This document shows positions 4,142 to 34,372 of a stretch of 34,906 bases of DNA, piece by piece. The stretch is taken from positions 1 through 34,906 of the forward strand of contig JAHLWZ010000975.1 of NCBI GenBank assembly GCA_020536535.1. The letters are read 5' to 3'. The position numbers were made by a program, and so were the translations under genes. The stretch comes from Pelomyxa schiedti. Its lineage: Eukaryota > Protista > Evosea. Below the pieces are notes generated by a model. That model was not told where the DNA came from. It worked only from the letters and a program-made list of their open reading frames with translations, and searched no databases. How positions within the stretch are numbered: position 1 is the stretch's first letter; each line of letters opens with the position of its first letter.

Positions 4142-5771
4142 TTACATCCAAACAAATGCCAAAACAACAGCCAAAGAAACAACCCAAAGAGCCACAGTCA
4201 TGTGGAGACCCCACAATGACTGTCTTGGTACTGATAATCCCGTTGGGGTCTGGTTGTATCCCAACAGCTCAAATAGATACACTAGAGGCAGAAGCAGTAA
4301 CCTGACACAATACCTAGCCAGTGGGTGATGTGTAAGCCATAGTGCAAATGGTGGTGATGTGGCATAGTAGAGGTCTATGAATTTACGGCCCAGATAGTGG
4401 TTGTGTAGAGTTGTATCCCTGTTTGTTTTGTTTGTTATATGAAAAGACATGATTGATATAATTGAACCTGAAACGGCGAAGTGTGTTGATTCTTGGGTCT
4501 AGGGGTGACCCATAAGCAGCAGTGGCAATGAAGCAACCACCTCTTTTGGCTTTTTTCGCACTACATTTGTAGCTCATAGCCTGGGTGTGAAGAGAAAGTG
4601 ATTCCGGTGAATAATAAGAATCCTGCCCAAAGAGTAAGGAACGGATAGCGTAAGTATGTACTAACCTCAATTGTGGGGTCATATTCATCACAAAAAAGTG
4701 CTGCCCTCCTAAAAAAAAAAAAGGTAAGCAATGGCAGACAACATGGATGCAAGTACTTTGAAATACTCTCTATCTTCGCTGATTGTTCTTGCAGATCATC
4801 CATCACCGAGGAAGACGACGAAGTAGTGGTAGAACATTGTGGTGGAGGTGGAGGTGGAGCTGCTGCTGCAGAGCCAGATGGAGGCGGCGGCGGAGCGGAT
4901 TCAGATGGAGGAGGCATGTGTGAAGGTGTTGGTGTAGGTTGAGCTTGAGGTTTAGGTTGAGGTTGGGATTGAGGTGCAGGTGAAGGCTTGGGTGGAGCGG
5001 GGCTGGCAGCGGCACATGCCGCGGGGACTGGGATTGATCTCGCCATGTCCTTCTTTTGGTTCATGGCGCTTCCTGCTTTTCCTCTGCCTTTGGCATTCGA
5101 TTTCGGTGCTTCCTCACATTTAATGTCGCATTTCATGTCACATTTCATGTCACATTTTGGGGAATAGTCACATTTTTCCTCGCATTTCGATTTTTTCTTG
5201 GCTTTGTATTCGCGTTTAACGTCACACATCCCTGCTTCTTCTTTCATCTTGCTCAACCCTCTTGGAGCACCAGGAGCGCGACGGAACTCCATGTAATCAT
5301 CCTCCTCTTCACATTCTGAGTCAGAGCTGTCACTGGCACTGCCACTGCTGCTGCTACTCGACTTGCGTCTTTGCTTATATTTTTTTTTGCCACCACCCCA
5401 CGAGGAGCTTCTTGTATCAGCAGTTGTAGAGCCGCTGATTTGCCAATCTTTTTCCCATTGAGTGGTATTTTAGAATTCAAGGCCATACGAGGATTAGATG
5501 TGGACACTTTTCTAGATTTTTTGGTTTTTTTCCCTGGAGCCCAGTAATCAAACTCAGTGTGGTGGTAAGCCTTTGGGTACATTTTCCTAAGTCCATAATT
5601 AAAATGTGAATTTCCAGGCCGACCGTAGTACTACATTTCTCACCTGGATGAGACCACACTGACGGTGGTATTATAATGAACCTTCTTTATTTCCTTCCAG
5701 TTTGTGCAAAATGGAATTTCATCCACGCTTTCTGCTTTGTCTAACGTGGCAATAGGAGGTGTGGGTTTCAT
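4142..5771 (-). CDS. Low-complexity protein ending in a CFI-box-like C-terminal module plus a terminal hydrophobic helix. Regions are Ser-rich, acidic, KCDMKCDMKCDIKCEE repeats, and Pro-rich.
   Basis: The minus-strand model starts at ATG 5771. Exons are MKPTPPIATLDKAESVDEIPFCTNWKEIKKVHYNTTVSVVSSR | KMYPKAYHHTEFDYWAPGKKTKKSRKVSTSNP | HWQISGSTTADTRSSSWGGGKKKYKQRRKSSSSSSGSASDSSDSECEEEDDYMEFRRAPG...KCDMKCDMKCDIKCEE...PPPPPP...DDLQEQSAKIESISK...DEYDPTIE | DSYYSPESLSLHTQAMSYKCSAKKAKRGGCFIATAAYGSPLDPRINTLRRFR | DTTLHNHYLGRKFIDLYYATSPPFALWLTHHPLARYCVRLLLLPLVYLFELLGYNQTPT...ALWVVSLAVVLAFVWM stop (4142). Minus-strand introns are about 5617-5673, 5481-5522, 4623-4675 and 4419-4467. Confidence 0.55.
5124..5160. 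repeat. Tandem 12-bp coding repeat (gtcacatttcat, about 3 copies) encoding KCDMKCDMKCD on the minus strand.
   Basis: The sequence gtcgcatttcatgtcacatttcatgtcacattt lies within the CFI-box-protein gene. Confidence 0.8.
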
Positions 5772-6094
5772 CTGTACTTCCCTAGTTCATGTTTTAAAAT
5801 AAAAAAAATAGTAATCATAAAAAAGACCTACCCTCTTTTCTCTGCTTCAGTTCTTTCCTGGATGCCATTAGGGTAATGTAGGATGATTCTTTTGGAATAC
5901 CTCAACGGCAATGAAACTTGTCAACGTGGTTGCTAAAGAATACCTCACACCAAGATCTATTATTTCACCTTTGCGCTACTGTGTGGTTACAAAGAGGTAT
6001 TCTGTCTCCCTAATACCTTTTCCCGTGCAAGTTCACTTGAGACATTGTCCTCAGCAAGGCTACTTTCCTCCCAGTCTCTGTGCAGAAAGAATTC

Positions 6095-9000
6095 TCAGTT
6101 TAATGTAATAATGCTGGAGATAACAGACCGAACAATAGCTCGGGCGCATAGCCTGTGAAGAGTGAGTCCATTTACAGTGTCACCAATGCTTGATGTTACA
6201 GTAGTGAGAAACTGAGCCCCAGTGTCACTTTCTTTGCCTTGGAGAGTAACCTTTGGGAGAAAGAAGTTTGTAATCACCAAATATAGGCGGAGACATACGC
6301 CATGGCAGTCAGCGTTAATAAAAGAATAAACAATGACTCTATCTCCAGAGAAAAGAGACATGACCTTTTGGGGGGCCTGTCTCGCTACAGAAGGAAATAT
6401 GGTAGCAGAAGAGGCACTCCCGCTTCCCCATTTTATTGCTATATCTTTCAAACAAGCTTGCTTACTTCTAGATATTTGACTTTGTACCTATGCAGTTAAA
6501 TTAGCAGAAAACGTTTTTAAGTCCAAGTTTACCTGTCCTCGGAGTGGATTTGATTTCGAAACAAATTCACAGGCACCACCTCCTAAACGGGCAAAGGACA
6601 TGAGGTTGTGTCGGTGTACTTCAGTACCAACACCAAGGGAGAAAACCCGGGTTTTACTGTGGGGATCCTGACAGTGATCAAGAATACTCTACAAAGTATT
6701 TAGCAGATAATTCAAGAGAATGATTACCAACCTTCATCACTTGTAGATCGTTGGCAATATCACCATCAGATATGATGAACAAGTTATAATTTGTTGAGCG
6801 TTGTTGAGCATCATTACTGTCCCGGGTGCACTCAATTTCTAGAAGAACACTTTTTAAAGCGGGCCAGAGCATACTCCCTCCCCAATTCGCTTGTAATTGC
6901 TTCAGGTCATTACTTAAATAAATAGCGTGGGGTGCATTGGTACCATGATATGGTTATGAGCTATGGACTGGGTTTCAGAGGTTTTTACAACGGAGGTGAG
7001 GAAGAGTGCTTCAAATGTGGATCCAAATGTTATTACATTGAATCGAGACATCATTGGTACCCCCCAAACTAGGCCGGTTATTAAGGAAGATGATATGAGA
7101 AGACACACGTAAGTTGAGGGAGACCTGTTTGCATTCGAGCAGACATGGCCCCATACTAGCAGATTGATCAATAAGTAGTATATCTAAGTTTTGGTTTAGA
7201 AAATATTGAATAAGTTAAAATTTTACACTCGGTATTGGAATCCACAGATTCACTGAGAGTTGGATAGAGCGCAACCATGGCAACATACTCCTCATTGGGA
7301 GGTATTGTGTTGTTGGATTTCGTTGGGGTTAAGGCATCAAGTTGAGGTGCCTTTTCCACCCACATGAATGGTGTGTGGCTATCACACATACGAACAAGGA
7401 GTATGAAGTCACTTGAAGGAGGTTCTGAAGGTATATCAACAAAGGGAATTCAAAGCAAGGAAAAACCATCAATCCAGAACAGTGTAGCTTTTCTTGGGGT
7501 TTGCTTGAATCTTATAGAATGTGTCGGACTCTCAATTTCGTGTATCACATGTGGCATATTGATGGCAATCTCCATTGAAAATGGACCCTGCATTGCGGGA
7601 AGGTGAAAATGCATATGTAAATAAAGCCATATAAACCCGATGCTCTGTCACACTAATGGTGCTTGTATTGTGCTGTGTGATGGGAGCAAGTGCACTGTGT
7701 TTTAACTGTCCGACAAGGTTCACGGGGCAAAGAAACTTCCTAGCCATGGCTTCGATTCCCAGTTCAGTAATGTCTAGTATTTCAATTGAAGGTAAGCGTA
7801 TTCTTAATATGGAGGCTGATACATGAGATCTTAATCACAACTTTCGTGTGTGGGGGGAGATTGCCCACTGAAACTGTGAAAACATTGGATTTGGCCTCAT
7901 CGAGTAGGTAGGCCCCATCGCCTCTCTTGATTGCTTCCTTGTATTCCTTATGAGCTTGTTCTTTCTCCTTTACTACTCCAATGACATGTTTGTCTGGATG
8001 CAGGTGAATGGGAAAGAAAAGTGCTCAATAATGCATACGGTTTATGAACGCCTCAAAGCCCACAACAGCTGATTTTTCGTCTAAAGGAAAAACATATTTT
8101 GCTTCTATTGGCGTTGCACTTGTGTTATGAAATTCTTGGAGGATGACGACTTCACCCACAAGATCTACACACATCAGTTGATTGAAACGCTAAGCATGCA
8201 TACCAATCAGCTTTGCGTGGATGCTAATAGCTTCCAGTGGTATGGGTTGCCCTGTGCTAGATACTAATCCACCTTTTTCTTTGGACTGGCGAACTAGTAA
8301 AATAATGTTTTGAACAAAAAAAAACATACAGCTGGCAATTCCGGCTTTGCTGCAGGGATGTTTGAAGAATCAACAATGACACGTTTTTTTATTCCAGAGA
8401 GTATACTCGAAAGTAAGGTGTTATCCTGCTGTTTTGGGTTCTCTGGCTTAAATCCAGAAATTTCCAGAAGGTACTGCACATGTTGTTGTGCAGTGGTATA
8501 GATCACATATCTTTGAGAATCAGTTTCCATTAGAAGAATAGAACTTGACACACTCATCGTCATCAAACTCGCTTTTTACTCCTGGTATTGCTTTTACACC
8601 GCGACAACTGTTAAAACTAGGAGGAGGCGCTGTCAAGGAGAAATCGTATTTATGTAAGTCCTTCACATTCCCAAGTGCGACCCGCGATAATAACAAGTAT
8701 CTACAGAGTAAAAAGGAAGGAAAGCTATTATGAGGGATGTCCACCAACATATAAGGTACCTGTTCCCATTTTCGTCTCCAGTGGTATATTTCAAGGCTGT
8801 TAGAGGATCATCACTGAAGTAAAGGCCGGCACCAAGGTTCCCCGCATTTGTCCGCTTTACACCAAGTGTTGTGGTAACAGTATGTGGAAGTAGCATTCCT
8901 CGTGAAAGAATTCCCAGCCAATTACCTTATGATATTAAGTTCCCGGCATTACATCTCCTATTTGAGTTAACCTATGGCAGAGCCGTGAAATAGGAGCCTT

Positions 9001-10631
9001 TCGTTACCGATGTCTGAATTAAAATTGGACAAGTCCATTTGCCTTGAAACTTTGAATACATTCGAAACACTCAAGTGAGGTGCGTGTTGTGCCACAAGAT
9101 CTAGAACATTTGAATATTCCAGAGTTTCGGATGGGAGAAGCTCAATTGTTGCTCCAAGGGAATAATAACTTGGGAGACAGTAAGGAATGTGTAAAAGGTG
9201 GAATTACAGTACAGCAAATCAACATCTCCAAGGTTGCCTGTTAGGTTGAATGAGCCTTCTCCTATACAGGACACATCCCGCATATCCTGAAGAGTGTCCA
9301 TCCAAGATAGTACCTGCTCGATAGTAGAGATATCCTGCATTGAAAATATCAAACGAAGGAAAATGTTCTATGTGAAAATATCTACATTTTGCATGTTTGA
9401 AGCTGTAGGAACAAAGGAAAAAAATTCAGTTGTAAGTTGATGTGCAACTGTGGGGTCCAGTTCACCATTTTCTATCGCCTTTGTAGAGTTTTAGTAGTCT
9501 TTCTAAAAGGCACAAACCAACCTGCTGAATCTTCCTCAGGACCACGGCAGCTTTTTCTATTTGAGGGGAAGAGAGCTGCTTCAAGGAGATATTCTTAGAG
9601 CAAAGTTGGATTGCTGATTCCTTCCAAAGTCCAATTAAGAGCTTTCTGACAGCAGCAGGCACAATGGAGGCACTTGCTGCATCCAATAAACCATCACGTT
9701 CAAAGTTAACATAACAAACAAATAAACAAACGAGTACCAGTGGTGTTTCCTATGTTGGCAGAAGATAGAAGGACCTTTTGGTATTTATTTTTGGTTGTCT
9801 AGGAATAGTAGTTTAGAAGAAAAGAAGGTGAACTGTACTTTAAGGTACTTTTTCTCTGAAGAGTGAACCGTAAACAGCCACGGCATCAGTCCATGAATGA
9901 ACATACATGTGATAGGGTTTTGAAATGTTTTTATCTAGTTGTTCCATTGTGCCCTTAAGTGTTACGATGCGAAAGAAGCGTGCTTGTCCATCCACTGTGC
10001 AATGTTATCTAAGAATGATGAAAGATGATAACCTCCAATGTGCAGTTCCATTAGCAATAAAGATGACCTCTTAACAAAGAACTTGGAGAGTAAATCTCTT
10101 CTCACAACAAAGTATGTCTGAGGGAAGTACGGTGCATCAATTGAATTTGCCTCATATTCCTACCAAAAAGGAGAAAGATAATGGTGAGCCTCCAGTTTAC
10201 AAGGAAATAAGATAGAAATATTCTCCGGTCAATATCCAAGCATAACGTCTGCACACCCTCACAACTCTATGTGCCCAAGTCCCAAGGCTAGCATTGCCTT
10301 CGAATTCAGAAATTTGGTGCATGTCATCGCGAATGACGTGGGCAGTGGGGTCCAATGGCACTGACACAGGCGGTGGCCCAACTGGGCCCGGCTCGACCAC
10401 CGGTGGGTCACACACCACGTCCTGCAACTCCGGGGGCGGCGGCAAGTTGGTGTCCCACGCCGCAGCCTCGTTGCACGACAACTTGGCGCGCTGGACCAGG
10501 TGGTCCCTCAGTCCCCCGCCCGGAGGAGCAAGTTGGGGTCGGGGCCTGGGCGGCGGCTTGTTCCACAGGGTCCTGGGCTGAAATCTTTTGACGACCACTA
10601 CCGGCCTGTTGGGCTTCAACCTCGACGGCAT
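6095..10631 (-). CDS. PARP4-like: Vault poly(ADP-ribose) polymerase-like protein (PARP4/vPARP architecture: BRCT-like N-terminus, PARP regulatory helical plus catalytic domain, VIT, VWA). Multi-exon.
   Basis: - The GC-rich first exon runs 10631-10200 (MPSRLKPNRPVVVVKRFQPR...TAHVIRDDMHQISEFEGNASLGTWAHRVVRVC, BRCT-like).
- The PARP helical region is at 9686-9462 (SKNISLKQLSSPQIEKAAVVLRKIQQ).
- The catalytic domain has ERLLFHGS (about 8960), then NWLGILSRG / LGVKRTNAGNLGAGLYFSDDPLTALKYTTGDENGNRY, then LLLSRVALGNVKDLHKYDF.
- The VIT domain reads IPLEAISIHAKLI | DLVGEVVILQEFHNTSATPIEAKYVFPLDEKSAVVGFEAFIN | HKHVIGVVKEKEQAHKEYKEAIKRGDGAYLLDEAKSNVFTVSVGNLPPHTKVVIKIS.
- The VWA domain has FNVITFGSTFEALF, ...NYNLFIISDGDIANDLQ and RVFSLGVGTEVHRHNLMSFARLGGGACEFV.
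- The C-terminal exon ends at 6095.
Introns are 39-49 nt, for example 8186-8224 and 7998-8042. Confidence 0.7.
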
Positions 10632-10694: not shown

Positions 10695-11632
10695 TCAGTT
10701 CAAGCGAATGAGATTTCCGAATTCAGAAGATGTTTGTGGCTGAAGAAGTCCAACGTGTGGCAATGTAGACACATGAAGAAAACATAGAGGACTTGGGTTG
10801 TTCAGGGGAAGACCTACAGTTGTTGTGAATTCGTTTGTTGGTGTTGTTACAGCTAGAACCTTTTTGTAGATAATATCTAGAATATGGGCTACTCCTTGTT
10901 CAAGGAATTGCTGGTTCTGTTTGCCTGGAATGTGTACAAACCCGGCAAGGGGAATCATAATGTTCTGTAGTGTTCCGACTTCTTTAATTAACCACTTAGA
11001 ACGAACAGTCATCCATTATAACAGCAGAAGCTACCTTGAAGCTGCATTTTTCTAGAATGAGCTCTCCACAACGTTGAATACAAAGCCAAGTTACAGAAAT
11101 AAGTTCCTGCATGCCACGACACAGAAGCAGATATTCCCCTATGGCCCAGCTGCTCAGCCAACCAGCTTGACCCGAGTGTGGATTGCAGTGCCAAAGGGCC
11201 CCCATTGACCAGAGCCACTCCATCCCCAGGCCTTGTGATTCCATTAGCGTCAGGCCTTATGTGTTGCAAAACATTAAGTCCAATGCACTCAATGTGGAAC
11301 TCAGTGGCCTCAGGGTCCACACCAAGGTGGATAAATGCAAAGGCTGAGTCACTTACATCGCCGTGTTGGTCCCACAGTGTATTGATACCCATCTGTGCTT
11401 CGGTTGTCCTATTTGTTGCTCTTAGTTGATGTATTGGCAGCCAGAACTCTATCCAAATTTTAAGTGGAGCTCTTTACACAGGAAGAATTTGCGTGATAAT
11501 TCTACATGGGGGCAATAGAGCCAAGGCCTCAGGGCACACAGTTCGATTCTCTATTGCCCTCACTACCATCTCTGAGGGATTGGTTGGGGCCGATATGTAG
11601 GGCCCGTACCCTGTCAACACAACTTTCGGCAT
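10695..11632 (-). CDS. PGPEP1-like: Pyroglutamyl-peptidase I (pyrrolidone-carboxylate peptidase, peptidase family C15), with at least one intron.
   Basis: - Exon 1 (from ATG 11632) reads MPKVVLTGYGPYISAPTNPSEMVVRAIENRTVCPEALA.
- Exon 2 reads INTLWDQHGDVSDSAFAFIHLGVDPEATEFHIECIGLNVLQHIRPDANGITRPGDGVALVNGGPLALQSTLGSSWLAEQLGHRGISASVSWHAGTYFCNLALYSTLW.
- The C-terminus has IPLAGFVHIPGKQNQQFLEQGVAHILDIIYKKVLAV.
These match PCP motifs (TGFePF, GxAxgR..i..E.vA.N, AGtYvCN, aGFiHvP). Confidence 0.7.
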
Positions 11633-11790
11633 CGGCAATTAAACAACTTTTCTAAAGCCAACTCTGCAGCCCGTCGTCCCACAATCCACTCCTCGAGCTC
11701 TCTGCAACCAGAAGTACCCCCTCGTTTTCGTTTTGCTGTTCTAACCATTCCAAGTCACTTTTTCATCAAAGCCAAAAGGTACCAACCTTT

Positions 11791-12701
11791 TCACTCTGTG
11801 AGAAGAGGTAGAACTTGTCTGAGGTCACCTGTAATTGTGTGGCGCGCAGCTGCGGACACGGATTCTGACATCACATTGACGGCGATTGGAAGGCCCACAA
11901 TGCCAAATGCTGCTATGTCATTCGGTCCATCACCAATAAAAGCAACATCCTCCAGGTCAACCCCAAGCCCTTGGGCAATTTCTCGCAGCTTTATTGTTTT
12001 GTCCCATGGTACAATCACCTGAAAATGGGAGATTAGAAATCCGGCAGTGTCATCTTGTGGGAGGGAAAAACCACACTTTGACATCCCCTGTTACTGCACC
12101 ATTTTCACAAACAAGCTCATTGACAGCCACATGCTTTATGCCTAGAATTGAGGCAAAGTGGTTTGCAAGTACATCCAATCCAGCTGAGAGAATAGCTGTG
12201 GCAATTCCATGCCTGTGAAGTGCATCTAATAATTCAACAGCACCAGCAGCAATTTCTGTGGCCCTTGCCTGGAAGTGAAACAGAATTCATGAACGTAAGA
12301 AACACAAAGCAATACCAACCTCTTCAAGCACAACAGAGAGAGGGGTTCCTTTCCACAAAATTGTATCAGCTTTGGCCCTGATGTTAGTCATAAAAGCAAA
12401 ACACCAAATACAAAACTCCACCATTCTTCATATCCTATTTCCCCAGCAAAGAATCTCTCAGCGTTATGAGCAGCCTGTGCCTCGCAGCCTATTAGCAAAG
12501 GGGGGTTTTCCCCGTGTTGGTTTTCCACTAAAAACCGCGAGAGTTGCACGACCTAGCCTGATATGTAACCTCTTCCATATACTATTCCTCTCTGCTGATA
12601 AAGTACCATCCTACTTGCCAAAACAACAGACACTTAGCGGTGCAAAAAGCAACAGCACTGTTCAAACCAGGTCAAAAACCGCCAGTTTTATCTTCCGAGA
12701 T
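11791..12701 (-). CDS. serB-like: Phosphoserine phosphatase-like HAD-superfamily hydrolase (SerB-like), multi-exon. The 5' end is uncertain.
   Basis: - The start exon reads MSSSSRKIKLAVFD (candidate HAD motif I).
- Next is ...LIGCEAQAAHNAERFFAGEIGYEEW | AKADTILWKGTPLSVVLEEV.
- Then | ARATEIAAGAVELLDALHRHGIATAILSAGLDVLANHFASILGIKHVAVNELVCENGAVTGDVK.
- The last exon reads | VIVPWDKTIKLREIAQGLGVDLEDVAFIGDGPNDIAAFGIVGLPIAVNVMSESVSAAARHTITGDLRQVLPLLTE stop at 11791.
Introns are 44-58 nt. Confidence 0.6.
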
Positions 12702-12984: not shown

Positions 12985-15900
12985 ATGGAAGGGTACGACG
13001 ACGTCTTCTTGCTTGAAAAGCACCTTGTCGAGCCTCTGTTGGGTTCCTGCGACGTAGCCGCCGTGTATGGAAAAAATCTTTCTTGTAAACCTCTCTTGTT
13101 GGTTCTTGGCGTCGTTGCTTTACTTTTGTTTCCTTGTGGCTGTTTCGGTTTTTTTTGTTGTTGTTGTTGCTTTGTTGAAAGATCTCGCCAGGCGCACTTA
13201 CGACGGGAATAACCGACCGGTTTTTTACGACGAGTGCATTGCCTCGCTCTTCAGCCCAAAGTCAATAGCGGTTGTTGGTGCTACTGATCGTCCCGGCATT
13301 GGGAGGATTACACTTGCCAATATCAAGGGAGCCGTATGTCACCATTAGTTTCTATATTCATAAAATAAAATAAAATAAAAAGGGTACAAAGGCGGCAGTA
13401 TGGGGTATAAATCCTGGACGTAAAGTGGTTCTGGGACAACCATGTTTCCCTTCTGTCAAAGATTGCCCAAGCGTGCCAGACCTAGTAGTCATAGTTACAC
13501 CTGCTCCTACTGTTCCTGCCATTGTCCAACAGTGTGTTGACATTAGGGTCAAGGTAGTGTTGTTTTTTTTCCGTGGATACTTCCTGTTGACTCGCTTTAG
13601 GCAATTATTGTTATAAGCTCTGGATTCAAAGAAGTTGGGCCAGCAGGAAAGTTGTTGGAAGATCAAATCTCTGCTTCTCTACATTCCACAAGATATACAA
13701 GACTTGTAGGGCCAAACTGCCTCGGAATACACTGCTCTTACACCAATTTGAATACAACATTTGGGTCTTCCGAATGTACCCCTGTATGCCACCGTCCAAA
13801 ACACACACTGGCTTAAAATATTAGGGAAACTGTGCAGTTGCAAGCCAAAGTGGTGCTGTAATTTGTACGATTCTTGATTGGGCACTTCAAAATGGTATCG
13901 GGTTCAGCAGCATGGTCTCTGTTGGATCCATGTTAGATGTTACCTGGTATCTCTTGCTTTATCATTCATTGTGCCTAACTTTTCGAAGGGCTGAACTTTT
14001 GTTGTACTTTGGAAATGACCCAAACACTAAGTTCATTGTAATTTATATGGAATCTATTGGCAATGCAGAAGCTTTCATGGCAGCAGCTCAGCAAGTCACA
14101 CTTCGTAAGCCCGTTATTGTACTGAAAGCTGGACGTACTGATGTAAATTGCACCATATATTGTCTTGTATCTAATTCTTGTTCTTTTAGGAAGCTGCAAA
14201 GGCAGCAATGTCTCATACAGGAACACTAGCCGGATCTGATCATATTCTTGACGTTGCATTCAAGCGTGTTGGTGTGATTCGAGTAGACTCGATTACTGAG
14301 ATTTACTCTGTATGTTTGTATTTCCTCAGCACTGGCACATATCCCAACCAAAACAGAATATTATGATGTTTTCGTTTTCTCCCATTCCCAGAGGGCCCAA
14401 TGTTGCTGTAGTTACTCACGCTGGTGGTCCTGGCGTTATTTCTACTGATACCATTGCACAAGTTACTGGGTGAGTTCCACTAAACAAATATAGTAATACA
14501 CTTCAGTGTGGGGGAAAGCTTGCTACAATTCCAAAATCCGTCATAGATTCGTTGAATCCTCTTCTTCCCAAAAATTGGTCCATGGTACCTGGCAACCTAC
14601 CACCGATACTTCCCATTAACTCCATTTCTAGACAAATCCTCTGGACCTTAGTGGTGGTGCTTCTCCGGAGTGCTATCAGTATGTTCTTGACGCCCTGTCG
14701 CAATTAGAAGATGTCCACAGTGTAATGGCCATAGTTGCTCCTCTTTCAGGAATTTGTCCTGGGACACCAGTAGCTCAATACCTGAAGCAATTCAAAGATA
14801 GATGCCCCGATAAAACGTTAGTAGTGGGAATGCTGGGTGGTGATGAGTTACTATGTGCAAGAAAGGCATTAATCAGAAATCGTAAGATTAAATAGCTTTG
14901 GAAGAAAACTCACTCTATGTAGACATTGCCGCATTTAATGTTACGGACATAACGGCCAGGACTATCACTGCGTAATTGACTCTGATTTTTTCTTACTGAG
15001 AATGACATCTCCTCCTTAGTGCCTGGAATTACCGAAAAACTGTCATGGACTTGCATCAGCCCCCCAAAGCGCTTCCGCGATTACATGATCATTGGAAAGC
15101 GACGTCTACTGTGAACGAACTTTTGTCCACTGTACTACCGCTCTTTCGTGTTCTCTTTTAACAAGAATACGTCTATGTAGGTACAAGCAACAGGCAGAAC
15201 AATTCTTACTGAAGCAGAATCGAAAACCGTGCTAGAGGCGTATGGTATTCCGATTACCAAGACTATTCCCACTCGCTCTGTAGAGGAAGCACTTTCTGCA
15301 GCTAACTCAATCGGGTATCCGGTATGTGATTTCAGTGTTGGAGCAGGAATCTTACACAGATAAAGGTCGTGCTGAAGCTTCTTAGTGAAACAATTACCCA
15401 CAAATCTGATGTTGGTGGTGTTTTGCTCAACATAGACTCGGACGAGGCCGTGCGACTTGGCTTCGAAACAATCAAGGTAAATCAACATCATTTCAATCAC
15501 AAGGAATCAATGGATCCCAGATGAATCTTCAAAAATGTCATCCTGATACGTGGCAAACCCACTTCCTCGGTGTAACAGTCCAACCAATGATAAATGCAAG
15601 CGAATCACTGGAACTTCTCCTTGGAAGTAGGCCTTGTTCTTCTTTATTCAGTTCTAAACATCCACAGGCCATACCGATGCTCAACTAGGACCTGTTGTTG
15701 TTTTTGGTACTGGAGGAAAGTTGGTGGAAGTCTTTAAAGACACTGCAGTTGGGCTTCCACCTCTTGACGCCACATTAGTTGAAATGATGATGAAGCAGGT
15801 TCTTAGTGCAATTAGTGTGGTGTCGGTAGTTAATACAAATAGACGAAAATATTTAAAGCCCTGGGTGGCGTTAGAGGGAGCAAGCCTGTTGACTTGGACA

Positions 15901-28061: not shown

Positions 28062-29398
28062 CTAGTACAGTGAGAGGGTGCTCTCTGATGTTGTACCACT
28101 TTTTGGTGCTTCTACCTTGGGTGTTTCCACCTCCTCAGATGGGGTACCTTTTGAAGGCACCGTTGCTGAAGGGGTTGTGGATTCCACTGCAGGCTCTGGG
28201 TCATTGATGTACCTCGGGACAGACTCAACAATCTGTAACAGCACATCATTCGATAAGGATGTGGAAGGAATCTCCATCCACTCATTGCGGGATTCTGTGG
28301 GATTTGCAGGGCATATGGAGAACTGGATGGACATAAGAATTTGGTTAATGATTGTGCTGACGACTAACCATCCATCTCAAATCGGGGCCAATTTCCCCAG
28401 TGTGAGGGTTGCGCCTTGAATACCAGATTACTTGTCCATTGTGAATCAAATCCTTTGGGTCTTTAGACAGATACAACTTGGTGAAATCTCGTTGCATTAT
28501 TTTCTCAATCCTTGATCTGAACACCCACATAACCTAGAGAGGGTTTCTACCTTGTTGTTGTGTACGGCCTTCTTACCTCACCATGGCATACAATCACAAC
28601 TTGTTTGCCAGACAACTCACGCCGGAGTGTATTATAAGTATGGTCAATCCTCTGCAGTACATGTGCAAGAGACTCTCCTGATTGAGGAGACCAGAAGAAA
28701 CTTTGAACAGGATTAATTGTGCAGAGTTATCATCCCCTGTTAAAATTTACCAATCACGCGCTCGCCTCTCCAGTTCTGCGGCGTATTTCGCCCTCTGTTA
28801 CAACCACCACACGAGATTAGTATGATCACAAAGGAAAAACTGGCTTCACCTGTTCCACAATAGACGTATTATCAAGAACGCCCTTATCTCTCTCCCTCAA
28901 TAGAACCTCTGTTCTCCAAACAGCCCCAGGCAGGTCAAGCAATGCAGCAGTCTCCATGGCCCTCGTGTATTCGCTCGTGTAGTATCTATCAAAGTGTGTG
29001 GTGATGTTTTTCTTTATCCAGGCTCCAGCAGCCTGAGCCTCTTGTCTCCCGCGGTCTGTGAGCCTGAGTGACGACGATTATGTTAGTTGACGAACCCAAA
29101 TTACTTCCATAGTGTTAGAGTGGAGATTGTCAATACGAATTCAAAAGCAAGCATAAGGAGCAAGGATAGAATTGAAATAGAAAAGAACTGGAGATGCCGG
29201 GCACCTGTAGAGGCTCGAGTGCTTTGCGGCAAAGCCCTCGACGGCGTAGCCACTGAGATCGCCCTTTTTTGCGCGGCTCTGGGCCTCGTTGCCCTCGGAT
29301 CGGCCGTGCCTCACAAACACCAGATCAATTGGTGGCAACCCGTGGGACACGTGCGGTGCCGTTGGCGGTTCACTGCAAGTTGCTGTTGTCGATGCCAT
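28062..29398 (-). CDS. Histidine phosphatase superfamily (phosphoglycerate-mutase-like branch) protein, multi-exon. The first exon is GC-rich.
   Basis: - Exon 1 (29398-~29200) reads MASTTATCSEPPTAPHVSHGLPPIDLVFVRHGRSEGNEAQSRAKKGDLSGYAVEGF (RHG catalytic motif).
- Next is SLRLTDRGRQEAQAAGAWIKKNITTHFDRYYTSEYTRAMETAALLDLPGAVWRTEVLLRERDKGVLDNTSIVEQ.
- Then ...VIVCHGEV... and ...YSRRNPHTGEIGPDLRWMVSRQHNH.
- The C-terminal exon IVESVPRYINDPEPAVESTT...STLSLY ends at 28062. Confidence 0.55.
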
Positions 29399-29602
29399 TT
29401 TTCGTCTGTTCTTGTAAATCCCGAATCAAAAACCTGTTCAAGGGGCGTTTCCTGTTTGTTCGAGAATATCACCCTTTTCACCTGCACCTCCGCTGTTCCT
29501 TTCCAACATCCACTGCGTGTTGTGCTCGGAAAATTCTAAACTATTCTACAGTTTCGAGGTCACAATTGCATTGCAATCAATCGAAACACTGACACTGATT
29601 AG

Positions 29603-30821
29603 ATGGCGGCAACCTCTGTTGGCACATACAGGCCGTGCAGTGTCCCAGAGGCCATCGAGGCAATCCGAGACCTCCACGAGAAGCAGCGCACCTACTACCC
29701 CTGGACCCCCAACACGGCCCAGCTGGGCCCCCGCGACCTCCTCCTCATCGGCTCCCGCGCCCTGGCCTACCTCTCCCAGTGGGGCGCCTTCTCCCCCCCC
29801 GCGAGCCCCAGCCCCTTCCGCCCCGTGGACGCCCGCACCGACTGGGACCTCGTGGGCAGCAAGGCCTCGGTGGCGGCGTGGCTGGAGCGCTGCGCGGCCC
29901 GCGTGGACCAGCTGCACATCAGCAAGGGGGCCCCGCGTCTAGTCGACGAGGGCGACTTCGAGGGGGTGCTGCTGGTCTCGTGCAGGCTGGACGGCGTCCA
30001 CGACGTCGAGGTGCTCGTGTGCACGTTGCTGAGGGAGCAATTGGAGTGTGAGGCGGTGCCCACGGGATTTGATTGCTGCTTGCCTGATGTATCTATATGC
30101 ATATTATCTGATATCCTCTCATCTTGTTTTATTGGCTAATACATTTGGTTTCTTTGGTTTGATTTACATTTGGTTTTCGTTTTTGGTTGTTTTATTATGT
30201 ACATTTGGCGGTTTTACACTTGAGTTTCTTCTCCCTTAAACTATTTAAGGTAAAAATGTTAACCCTTTTTAGGGCACCCCATTTTCTGTGGCGAGTTTGT
30301 TGGCCCTCTGTAAGATAAAGCTCAGTCACTTGGTTTACAATGTCAACTGGAAAAAGCACATGCTGCATTTTGAGGCTATTAAACGCCATTTGTCAGACAG
30401 AAGGCTTCTTGATTCATATCTATTTCAAGTGCTTAACGATTATTCCTGGGAATATAATCCACTGTGCCTCGTGAATAAGCTCATATACGGGTATGCACCA
30501 ACGCAGAGACACTGGATGAGCACCAATCAGCTCATCTCCGAATCCGACTTACCTGCCTTAGAGAGCAAACTTTTGGCCTGCCCTCCTGACTCCCAGAACG
30601 GGTCTGAGACAGGAAATGACCTCAAAGTGAGAGATGTAATACGTACTTTATCACAAGGAGCACTGGATCAACAGTCCTTTTTTTCGCTTTCCGGGAATCA
30701 ACAGAAGGCAGTGGCACTCGAGATAGCCAACCAATTTAGTGCAAGATCCAGAGTCTCTTTTGTGGAGGCAGTGAAAGCGGTCTGTACTTCCACCTTCACC
30801 ACCTTCATTCCTTCCATCTGA
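29603..30821 (+). CDS. Two-exon gene of unknown function. Exon 1 is GC-rich (about 70% GC) and exon 2 is AT-moderate. Weak nucleotidyltransferase-like (GS...DxD...D.E.) and F-box-like motif patterns are present.
   Basis: Exon 1 (29603-30088) reads MAATSVGTYRPCSVPEAIEAIRDLHEKQRTYYPWTPNTAQLGPRDLLLIGSRALAYLSQWGAFSPPASPSPFRPVDARTDWDLVGSKASVAAWLERCAARVDQLHISKGAPRLVDEGDFEGVLLVSCRLDGVHDVEVLVCTLLREQLECEAVPTGFDCCLPD. The donor GT at 30089 is in phase 0. The intron is 30089-30272 (184 nt) and its acceptor ttttag is in phase 0. Exon 2 (30273-30821) reads GTPFSVASLLALCKIKLSHLVYNVNWKKHMLHFEAIKRHLSDRRLLDSYLFQVLNDYSWEYNPLCLVNKLIYGYAPTQRHWM...FIPSI stop. The ORF is long in both exons and the splice phases are consistent. 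Confidence 0.45.
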
Positions 30822-32345: not shown

Positions 32346-32540
32346 CAACATGGGTTGAAAAAAAAAAAAACCAAAAAAAGATGGGAGGTGTTCACCGGGA
32401 ACCCAGGGTGGTCCGGCCGGACCCACCAACACAGGCTCCCAGCATCCCACAACCGCGGTCCGCGTCGCGTCGCGCCACGAACACAAGGGATTGGTGTCAT
32501 CCCGGTCCGTGGTCACGCGCATCACAGTCCTCGGCCCCAA
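32346..32540 (-). repeat. Copy 2 (inverted orientation) of the ~170-bp GC-rich T-run-terminated dispersed repeat.
   Basis: The A-run at 32346-32368 is the complement of the T-run. 32372-32537 is the reverse complement of window positions 1-160 (cccggtccgtggtcacgcgcatcacagtcctcggcc = reverse complement of ggccgaggactgtgatgcgcgtgaccacggaccggg). It accounts for ORFs 32262-32558(-) and 32018-32500(-). Confidence 0.75.
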
Positions 32541-34192: not shown

Positions 34193-34372
34193 GCACGTGA
34201 CCACGGACCGGATGACACCAATCCCTTGTGTTCGTGGCGCGACGCGACGCGACGCGGACCGCGGTTGTGGGATGCTGGGCGCCCGAGTTGGGTGGGTCCG
34301 GCCGCACCACCCCAATGGGTTCCATCTTTTTTTGGTTTTTTTATTCGTAATGCCAACACACCGTCAACAAGG
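34193..34372 (+). repeat. Copy 3 of the ~170-bp GC-rich repeat (with an internal 14-bp deletion) plus the shared downstream module.
   Basis: The sequence atgcacgtgaccacggaccggatgacaccaatcccttgtgttcgtggcgcgacgcgacgcgacgcggaccgcggttgtgggatgctggg...ccatctttttttggtttttttatt covers 34193-34343. The shared module cgtaatgccaacacaccgtcaacaa at 34345-34372 matches 238-270. Confidence 0.75.

Follow-up and report, generated by a model that had tools for sequence, protein, structure and literature searches.

The CFI-box is known as an NCBI protein family (NCBIfam NF041770, CFI_box_CTERM) that names prokaryotic proteins, and vault PARP (PARP4) is known as a eukaryotic enzyme; the combination of the two is new. 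LPXTG, PEP-CTERM, PGF-CTERM and similar modules are tripartite C-terminal sorting signals, and many prokaryotic CFI-box proteins resemble them in showing a motif, a hydrophobic helix and a basic tail at the extreme C-terminus. The CFI-box differs from these signals in being a predicted helical fold of ~70 amino acids (aa), in lacking a following helix in one third of its members and in having no linked processing-enzyme gene that we could see. Here we analyzed a window of 34,906 bp, which is a whole nuclear contig (JAHLWZ010000975.1) of the anaerobic archamoeba Pelomyxa schiedti, and found that a complete PARP4-like gene on its minus strand ends in a CFI-box, which is split by a 49-nucleotide (nt) intron and followed by a terminal hydrophobic helix. 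This appears to be the first documented eukaryotic CFI-box. In the literature, we found no paper mentioning CFI-box-CTERM or the CFIATAA motif.

Homology of the tail was assessed with profile hidden Markov models (HMMs). The spliced C-terminus matches NF041770 over the entire profile (positions 1-69/69) with 89.7 bits and an E-value of 8e-26, far above the curated cut-off of 40 bits, so that the family HMM check proposed by an earlier note on this DNA was passed with a wide margin. Scored as full proteins, the GenBank model of the gene (P0240) and its two P. schiedti paralogues (P0169 and P0241) reach 84.9, 75.6 and 89.5 bits, respectively; the match in P0240 covers aa 1554-1622 of 1667, with only the linker and the helix beyond it. 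A local HMM, built from 118 prokaryotic sequences with the window sequence left out, gave 112 bits (E 1e-36) for the spliced tail and detected no second CFI-box over the 34,906 bp. Pfam contains no family for the tail. The signature residues (CFIATAAYG, LRxFRD, G, YY, SPPxA, R and LxP) are all present, and the four elements listed in the earlier note (CFIATAAYGS, LRxFRD, the SPP segment and a C-terminal hydrophobic anchor) proved to be real.

Conservation of individual positions points the same way. An alignment of 50 sequences that includes the window protein contains 14 invariant columns. Positions conserved at ≥80% in 180 prokaryotic sequences are all kept in the window protein, save for V to I and I to L, and in all seven eukaryotic sequences described below, save for three conservative changes (Y/F, V/I/T and I/L) and one R to V. 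A search of a protein database with the tail returned 378 matches, the best 120 of which are 41-58% identical, short and prokaryotic or metagenomic, several of them named CFI-box-CTERM. It is a near-certainty that the spliced C-terminus is a genuine CFI-box-CTERM domain.

The domain is encoded across a splice junction. The upstream minus-strand exon ends with ...CGC CGT TTC AG at 4468 and the final exon (4418..4142) starts with G GAT ACA ACT, and the intron between them (4467..4419) thus divides the Arg codon of the F-R-D tripeptide into AG and G; the spliced product ends with ...KRGGCFIATAAYGSPLDPRINTLRRFRDTTLHNHYLGRKFIDLYYATSPPFALWLTHHPLARYCVRLLLLPLVYLFELLGYNQTPTGLSVPRQSLWGLHMTVALWVVSLAVVLAFVWM before the stop. 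When the intron is retained, the frame reads ...RRFRFNYINH... and runs into a stop at 4383, 12 codons on. On unspliced DNA, the local HMM finds the two halves of the domain in different frames (46 and 56 bits; profile positions 2-31 and 23-79) that meet at the junction. Because the halves adjoin in profile coordinates, the intron joins them precisely, and the alignment is ungapped across the splice junction. P0240 contains the same intron, and two environmental eukaryote genes (L001 and L004) carry introns of 34 nt and 35 nt, respectively, at the identical site and phase, after the second base of the F-R-D Arg codon. The three introns bear no relation to one another in length, in contrast to the conserved codons on either side; two further environmental sequences (L006 and L007) have no intron at the F-R-D site. 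The earlier note was therefore right to place an intron at about 4419-4467, to state that FRD arises only by splicing, since its Arg is the split codon, and to state that retention would destroy FRD and introduce the stop at 4383, which can be read directly in the DNA. When exons were chained ab initio so as to minimize the number or the length of introns, the C-terminus was spliced wrongly; the open reading frame by itself is thus not enough to define the 49-nt intron, which is established by homology and by the public model.

The body of the protein is that of a PARP4 enzyme. Three-frame translation upstream of the tail revealed pieces of PARP catalytic, VIT and VWA domains, and a search with these exons retrieved PARP4-type proteins at ~43% identity. 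We assembled a gene model of 1647 aa from the window by using the paralogue P0169 as a guide, with which the window gene is colinear from the ATG at 10631 to the stop at 4142. This reconstruction is 99% identical to P0240 (annotated in GenBank as protein mono-ADP-ribosyltransferase PARP4, Pelomyxa schiedti; 1667 aa), which maps exactly onto the window with the exons and introns summarized in Table 1, including the final intron. Three junctions differ between the two models, among them that of the intron preceding the CFI exon (43 nt in the public model, 85 nt in ours; both in frame). The introns of the gene range from 38 to 97 nt with a median of 45. The gene models of this genome, which has 7.4 introns per gene, were built with Augustus and refined by PASA/EVM with a transcriptome (PMC8887013); PARP and vaults are not mentioned in that paper.

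The window PARP domain contains the motifs LLFHGS, GLYFSD and DDDEYVIY, which by analogy with the PARP1 motifs suggests an intact H-Y-E triad (H421, Y461 and E530), and VIT and then VWA follow downstream of the catalytic domain in the order of PARP4. The Pelomyxa protein is like the metazoan and Balamuthia PARP4 proteins in having PARP_reg and PARP followed by VIT and VWA, with ~32-34% identity over ~60-70% of the length. It is unlike them in three respects: a Pfam scan of P0240, P0169 and P0241 gave no match to a BRCT family, whereas the Balamuthia and animal PARP4 matches carry PF00533; PF26156 and PF26166 of the animal PARP4 matches are not reported for Pelomyxa; and the Pelomyxa C-terminus, where PARP4 has the region that binds the major vault protein, consists of low-complexity sequence, the CFI-box and a transmembrane (TM) helix. 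Given the absent BRCT match and the replaced C-terminus, association of the window PARP4 with vaults is uncertain. The earlier note had described the protein outside its tail as eukaryote-style low complexity, and the Ser tract, the acidic run, the KCDMKCDMKCDIKCEE repeat and poly-Pro are indeed present, but the protein consists mainly of PARP_reg, PARP, VIT and VWA and is a 1667-aa PARP4 homologue.

The CFI-box and a terminal hydrophobic helix are shared by the three PARP4 paralogues of P. schiedti. P0169 (KAH3768093.1, also annotated as protein mono-ADP-ribosyltransferase PARP4, Pelomyxa schiedti; 1617 aa) was the best long match in a HMMER search with the last exon alone, and P0241 has 1465 aa. 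Both are colinear with the window protein, at 55-56% identity in the enzyme body and 42-72% in the tail, and lie on contigs of 466,869 and 115,595 bp. We further identified four environmental eukaryote-type sequences with the same tail. Two of these are PARP-VIT-VWA genes colinear with the window gene, both in ENA assembly ERZ21831265: L001 on a 115-kb contig with a GC content of 37%, and L004 on a 34-kb contig where its neighbors encode a histone, a cyclin, importin-alpha and Nup96. L006/P0187 lies on a JGI contig (GC 60%) as an unbroken open reading frame that runs from the end of a VWA domain through the CFI-box to the helix, and L007/P0171, from a Logan contig, has a PARP4/VWA5A-type region (...SYTSFIAVEER) upstream. 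In every eukaryotic member, the protein that carries the CFI-box is of the PARP4/VIT-VWA type, and the sequence after the box runs through E-x-x-G-Y and a linker into a terminal helix, beyond which there is no basic tail. By NF041770, the CFI-box is absent from PARP4 of Balamuthia, Lymnaea (mollusc), Rotaria (rotifers) and Lemur. The survey of eukaryotes was indirect, cluster representatives having been searched once with the last exon as the query.

To place these proteins among prokaryotic ones, we considered a scan of one genome per prokaryotic species (GTDB), which yielded at least 553 CFI-box loci. Bacteria among the loci listed include Nitrospirota, many Deltaproteobacteria (Syntrophaceae and Syntrophales included), Gammaproteobacteria, Chloroflexota/Dehalococcoidia and bacteria of the candidate phyla radiation (CPR); archaea include Methanophagales, Hadarchaeota, Bathyarchaeota and haloarchaea. 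The sole reason to single out Syntrophales is that the symbionts of P. schiedti include Ca. Syntrophus, next to Methanoregula (PMC10579272), and among the loci listed their identities to the amoeba domain are no higher than those found elsewhere. A scan of JGI metagenomes gave a single, distant match. The passenger domains found among the best 120 of the 378 database matches include FN3, PKD, RHS, DUF11 and Big; many prokaryotic members carry such surface-type passengers, and some have signal peptides. A helix follows the core in 122 of 185 sampled prokaryotic members, in 117 of these 122 with a Lys/Arg tail after it, and 63 of the 185 end right after the core without a TM helix. No conserved neighbor gene was present within 3 kb on either side in 80 prokaryotic loci. 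Several of the TM-less members (P0022, P0034, P0035, P0097 and P0107 are among the members without a helix) have a DUF559/Vsr-like endonuclease domain (PF04480), not an obvious surface passenger. These TM-less proteins, some of them with PF04480, call the label of sorting signal into question; the earlier note had applied that label to the module, but it is itself unproven, with about a third of prokaryotic members lacking a TM helix after the domain. We also observed three long prokaryotic proteins (P0167, P0192 and P0199) with two CFI-boxes, one internal and followed by hydrophobic helices and one C-terminal, which look like two fused CFI-box proteins.

Compared with prokaryotic NF041770 proteins (WP_149082481.1 from Natrialba swarupiae, and those from an MSBL1 archaeon and Thermodesulfobacteriota), the Pelomyxa tail shares the full 69-position match with all conserved residues and the position of the domain, which lies C-terminally in a large multidomain protein and precedes a hydrophobic helix, as in ~2/3 of prokaryotic members. 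It differs in having a eukaryotic host and a coding sequence split by an intron. The passenger is of the cytosolic PARP/VIT/VWA type without a signal peptide, whereas theirs are surface domains of the FN3, PKD, Big, RHS or DUF11 type. The linker from the core to the TM helix is longer, there is no Lys/Arg tail, and the core is followed by the eukaryote-specific E-x-x-G-Y.

We consider it very likely that the CFI-box is of prokaryotic origin. It would have come from a bacterium or an archaeon by lateral transfer and would then have been fused to PARP4 in an ancestor of the Pelomyxa lineage, after which its composition would have ameliorated, the phase-2 intron would have been gained in the F-R-D Arg codon and the gene would have been duplicated. 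The broad prokaryotic spread of the domain, its narrow eukaryotic spread on a single protein family and its absence from other PARP4 proteins make a prokaryote-to-eukaryote transfer the economical explanation. The CFI exons are compositionally like the rest of the gene (GC content 0.475 and GC at third codon positions (GC3) 0.44, vs 0.459 and 0.42 for the gene), which together with the intron indicates that the transfer was not recent. The shared architecture speaks for one acquisition only, for which the domain tree gives no support. Of the two explanations offered in the earlier note, horizontal transfer followed by intron gain agrees with the count of at least 553 prokaryotic loci and with eukaryotic finds restricted to PARP4/VIT-VWA-type proteins in Pelomyxa and in a small number of environmental relatives; an undescribed eukaryotic membrane-anchor motif does not hold as a separate origin, although it may still describe how the module is used today.

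The structure of the tail was modeled with AlphaFold2 on the last 132 residues by using the 50-sequence alignment, and no solved homologous structure of the CFI-box was found. The model is all-helical, with a mean predicted local distance difference test (pLDDT) of 81.7 and values of 86-94 in the core, and has helices at residues 20-26, 32-45, 49-70, 73-95 and 107-131: CFIATAA forms a short helix, three longer helices complete the core, and a linker of lower confidence leads to the terminal helix (107-131). On the Kyte-Doolittle (KD) scale with a 19-aa window, this terminal helix is the only TM-grade segment of the protein (aa 1649-1667, KD 2.38), no other segment reaching 1.6, and this hydropathy agrees with the reading of the helix as a TM anchor in the earlier note. 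The N-terminus is not hydrophobic (maximum KD 0.39). The window protein ends with ...LAFVWM, with no residues past the helix and, as in the other eukaryotic members, no Lys/Arg tail.

From the missing signal peptide and the single helix at the extreme C-terminus, Pelomyxa PARP4 is probably a tail-anchored membrane protein. The tail would insert as a tail anchor, so that the PARP/VIT/VWA body stays in the cytosol together with the CFI-box, which would thus lie on the face opposite to that of its usual, secreted prokaryotic setting. The CFI-box, a predicted compact four-helix unit, would act as a juxtamembrane module that could attach to the surface of the bilayer or promote self-association, thereby holding the enzyme at the membrane. 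All highly conserved prokaryotic residues survive in this eukaryotic cytosolic setting, so the function is most likely intrinsic to the fold rather than recognition by a prokaryote-specific sorting enzyme; combined with the predicted fold, the 63 of 185 TM-less members and the lack of a linked gene, this retention argues for a self-sufficient juxtamembrane domain instead of a linear tag. Our confidence that the module is a cytosolic, juxtamembrane one on a tail anchor, with a function intrinsic to its fold, is evenly balanced. The explanation as a whole, which blends the near-certain homology with the very likely origin and this even-handed view of the mechanism, we judge to be likely.

Several points count against this account. 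The 49-nt intron rests on the public model, which was aided by a transcriptome (PMC8887013), on homology and on positional conservation. The CFI-box could be more widespread in eukaryotes than we have seen. No donor stands out, the best identity to the amoeba domain among the loci listed being 59% and spread over many phyla. The domain tree (neighbor-joining, 76 columns) has no power to tell one acquisition from several, with a clade of the five intron-bearing sequences in 15/200 bootstrap replicates and no monophyly of the seven eukaryotic sequences (13/200). We found no published account of CFI-box function in any organism. Finally, helix 4 of the core (YCVRLLLLPLVYLFELL) is itself fairly hydrophobic, with a KD of 1.96 over 15 residues, and its equivalent in P0169 exceeds 1.6 over 19 residues.

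Three alternatives concern the origin and integrity of the locus. Prokaryotic DNA, for example from an endosymbiont, could have been joined to an amoeba contig in assembly, or the contig could have been mis-binned; P. schiedti cells are full of prokaryotic endosymbionts, the assembly was made from amplified single cells and needed decontamination, and Syntrophaceae and Syntrophales are among the carriers of the CFI-box. Set against this, a spliceosomal intron interrupts the CFI-box, which forms the in-frame end of a gene of 32 exons and matches the remainder of that gene in GC and GC3, and the same fusion recurs in two paralogues on other contigs and in four environmental eukaryote sequences. 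Composition and intron in effect exclude contamination or chimerism, to which we assign practically no probability. It is quite improbable that the CFI-box is instead an old eukaryotic domain, perhaps of the age of the last eukaryotic common ancestor, kept in this lineage only, or that it arose in eukaryotes and then moved to prokaryotes: the domain tree gives no direction and eukaryotes were covered by the single last-exon search, yet the domain is very broad in bacteria and archaea on many different passengers, whereas the eukaryotic finds belong to a single protein family of one narrow lineage, with the PARP4 proteins of the amoebozoan Balamuthia and of animals lacking it. A third proposal, that the tail is a decaying relic whose intron is poorly spliced and whose CFI-box and TM part are not made or not needed, could appeal to the donor GTTCAA, which is far from GTRAGT, and to the premature stop given by the retained intron. 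We find it extremely unlikely, as loose donors are general in the window gene (GTTAAC, GTTTTT, GTACCA and GTCTGT), the L004 donor at the same site is similar (GTTCCA), and across the three paralogues and the four homologues from environmental data, at 57-72% identity, the downstream exon has lost none of the conserved residues, in contrast to the intron, which varies in length and sequence.

Two further alternatives concern what the module does. If it were a processed sorting signal, it would be cleaved or covalently modified at the invariant Cys-Phe-Ile motif, whose Cys is residue 1554, by a dedicated enzyme, co-transferred or endogenous, and the PARP4 body would be passed on to another structure instead of being held by the tail. 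The family name and the layout of motif, TM helix and Lys/Arg tail in ~2/3 of prokaryotic members do resemble C-terminal sorting signals, and CFIATAAYG is conserved almost absolutely, as sites of recognition or reaction typically are. Nevertheless, we regard this as unlikely: the 80 prokaryotic CFI-box genes have no conserved partner gene beside them, a third of members have no TM helix at all, the motif is embedded in a domain of ~70 aa whose fold is predicted with confidence and is not a short linear signal, the eukaryotic tails lack a basic cytoplasmic tail, and the Pelomyxa module would face the cytosol, whereas prokaryotic sorting enzymes act extracytoplasmically. Alternatively, helix 4 and the terminal helix could form a hairpin in which both cross the membrane or dip into it and the 21-aa linker lies on its other side. 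The hydropathy of helix 4 given above speaks for such a hairpin, as does the prokaryotic helix 4, which runs almost straight into the TM helix. This arrangement has only a small chance in our estimation, considering that in P0240, P0241 and P0187 the terminal helix alone passes the threshold, that helix 4 contains conserved Arg and Pro residues and is packed in the predicted bundle, and that helix 4 of the TM-less members is amphipathic and charged. We set aside self-cleavage at Gly-Cys of the Hedgehog or intein type, because only helices are predicted in the fold and the position preceding the Cys is not conserved among the eukaryotic members.

Resemblances to other membrane-linked proteins were also noted. 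Like tail-anchored proteins, the window protein lacks a signal peptide and has one hydrophobic helix, located at its very C-terminus. A VIT protein of Mastigamoeba balamuthi (P0134, 'putative C-tail anchored protein') has a tail helix like that of the window protein and no CFI-box; it ends with a SNARE domain (aa 555-605) and the TM helix. The paralogue P0169 differs from the window protein by an additional Synaptobrevin (R-SNARE) domain just upstream of the CFI-box (PF00957, E 3e-11, aa 1424-1475), whereas the last 191 aa of the window protein have no Pfam match even at E-values up to 10. The R-SNARE of P0169 and the SNARE-TM end of P0134 raise the possibility that membrane anchoring is older than the CFI-box in the PARP4/VIT proteins of Archamoebae, which may have been membrane-anchored and linked to SNAREs before the CFI-box arrived.

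On the origin favored here, the locus would represent a domain-sized lateral transfer fused to a resident eukaryotic enzyme, and the intron, which is necessarily later, would date that transfer. It would also provide a natural experiment on the CFI-box, the conserved residues persisting in a cytosol-facing eukaryotic context without a basic tail and without an obvious partner enzyme. The directly testable prediction is that Pelomyxa PARP4 enzymes are membrane-bound, which would be unusual for vault-type PARPs. The wider impact is moderate, Archamoebae being already known for lateral transfers. A more speculative view, which we put forward as a possibility with considerable doubt, is that the CFI-box is a self-sufficient membrane-interface module (acting by bilayer docking, self-association or chemistry of the invariant Cys) that works on either face of a membrane in prokaryotes and eukaryotes alike, and that amoebae of the Pelomyxa lineage captured it to turn a normally soluble, vault-associated PARP4 into a family of membrane-tethered ADP-ribosyltransferases. 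If so, one paralogue combines the module with an R-SNARE, and the enzymes might sit on endomembranes facing cytosolic prokaryotic symbionts.

Coordinates of the gene and of the elements of its tail are collected in Table 1.

Table 1. Features of the PARP4-like gene of P. schiedti and of its CFI-box tail, in window coordinates
Feature	Position	Strand	Details
PARP4-like gene, complete	10631..4142	minus	32 exons, 31 GT-AG introns, 1667 codons + TAA
PARP_reg and PARP catalytic exons	8459..9602	minus	aa 262-340 (PF02877, E 5e-7); aa 377-547 (PF00644, E 3e-25)
VIT and VWA exons	6563..8237	minus	aa 607-717 (PF08487, E 1.5e-34); aa 870-1033 (PF13768 VWA_3, E 2e-10)
Long exon with low-complexity linker (Ser tract, acidic run, KCDMKCDMKCDIKCEE repeat, Pro-rich tract)	4757..5447	minus	translation, exon map
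Short exon (..KRAALFCDEYDPTIE)	4666..4708	minus	exon map
43-nt intron (public model)	4623..4665	minus	exon map
Exon with first third of CFI-box	4468..4622	minus	CFIATAAYGS at 4535..4506; last codons are F and the first two bases of Arg (F-R-D)
49-nt spliceosomal intron within CFI-box, GTTCAATT...AAACAG, phase 2	4419..4467	minus	sequence and public model
Rest of CFI-box core (RDTTLH...LLLLPLV), predicted helices 2-4	4280..4418	minus	NF041770 match, AlphaFold2
21-aa linker	4279..4217	minus	between CFI-box core and terminal helix
C-terminal hydrophobic helix LWGLHMTVALWVVSLAVVLAFVWM	4145..4216	minus	then TAA at 4144..4142

Two places in the gene admit a second reading. The donor at 4665 can be joined to a second in-frame acceptor at 4581 (window 4581-4665, minus strand), giving an 85-nt intron with the loss of 14 codons (DSYYSPESLSLHTQ); the two acceptors reflect either alternative splicing or merely a cryptic site. 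At ~5380-5490 (minus strand), two overlapping open frames meet by an A9 homopolymer. The public model joins them through a 41-nt intron (5488..5448), and a one-base error in the length of the homopolymer is another way to join them, with a product closer to the paralogue (…RGVVAKKKYKQRRKSS…).

Elsewhere in the window, the neighbors are split genes of eukaryotic type. Those at 11012-12290 (minus strand) and 13825-14226 (plus strand) encode a pyroglutamyl peptidase (Peptidase_C15), a HAD-family hydrolase and a Succ_CoA_lig protein (ADP-forming acyl-CoA synthetase type), and a protein with NHL repeats is encoded near 26.9 kb. No tRNA genes and no Rfam matches were found in the window. Two stretches, 1-1000 (GC 0.63) and 29001-30000 (GC 0.58), are GC-rich relative to 0.45 overall and contain long overlapping open frames in multiple phases that are rich in Ala, Ser, Pro and Arg; they are low-complexity coding or repeat sequence. 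Near the contig end, an inverted repeat (32426-32502 / 34210-34291, ~1.7 kb apart) consists of overlapping arm pairs of 54 nt (91%) and 42 nt (100% complementarity), and may mark the ends of a repeat or mobile element.

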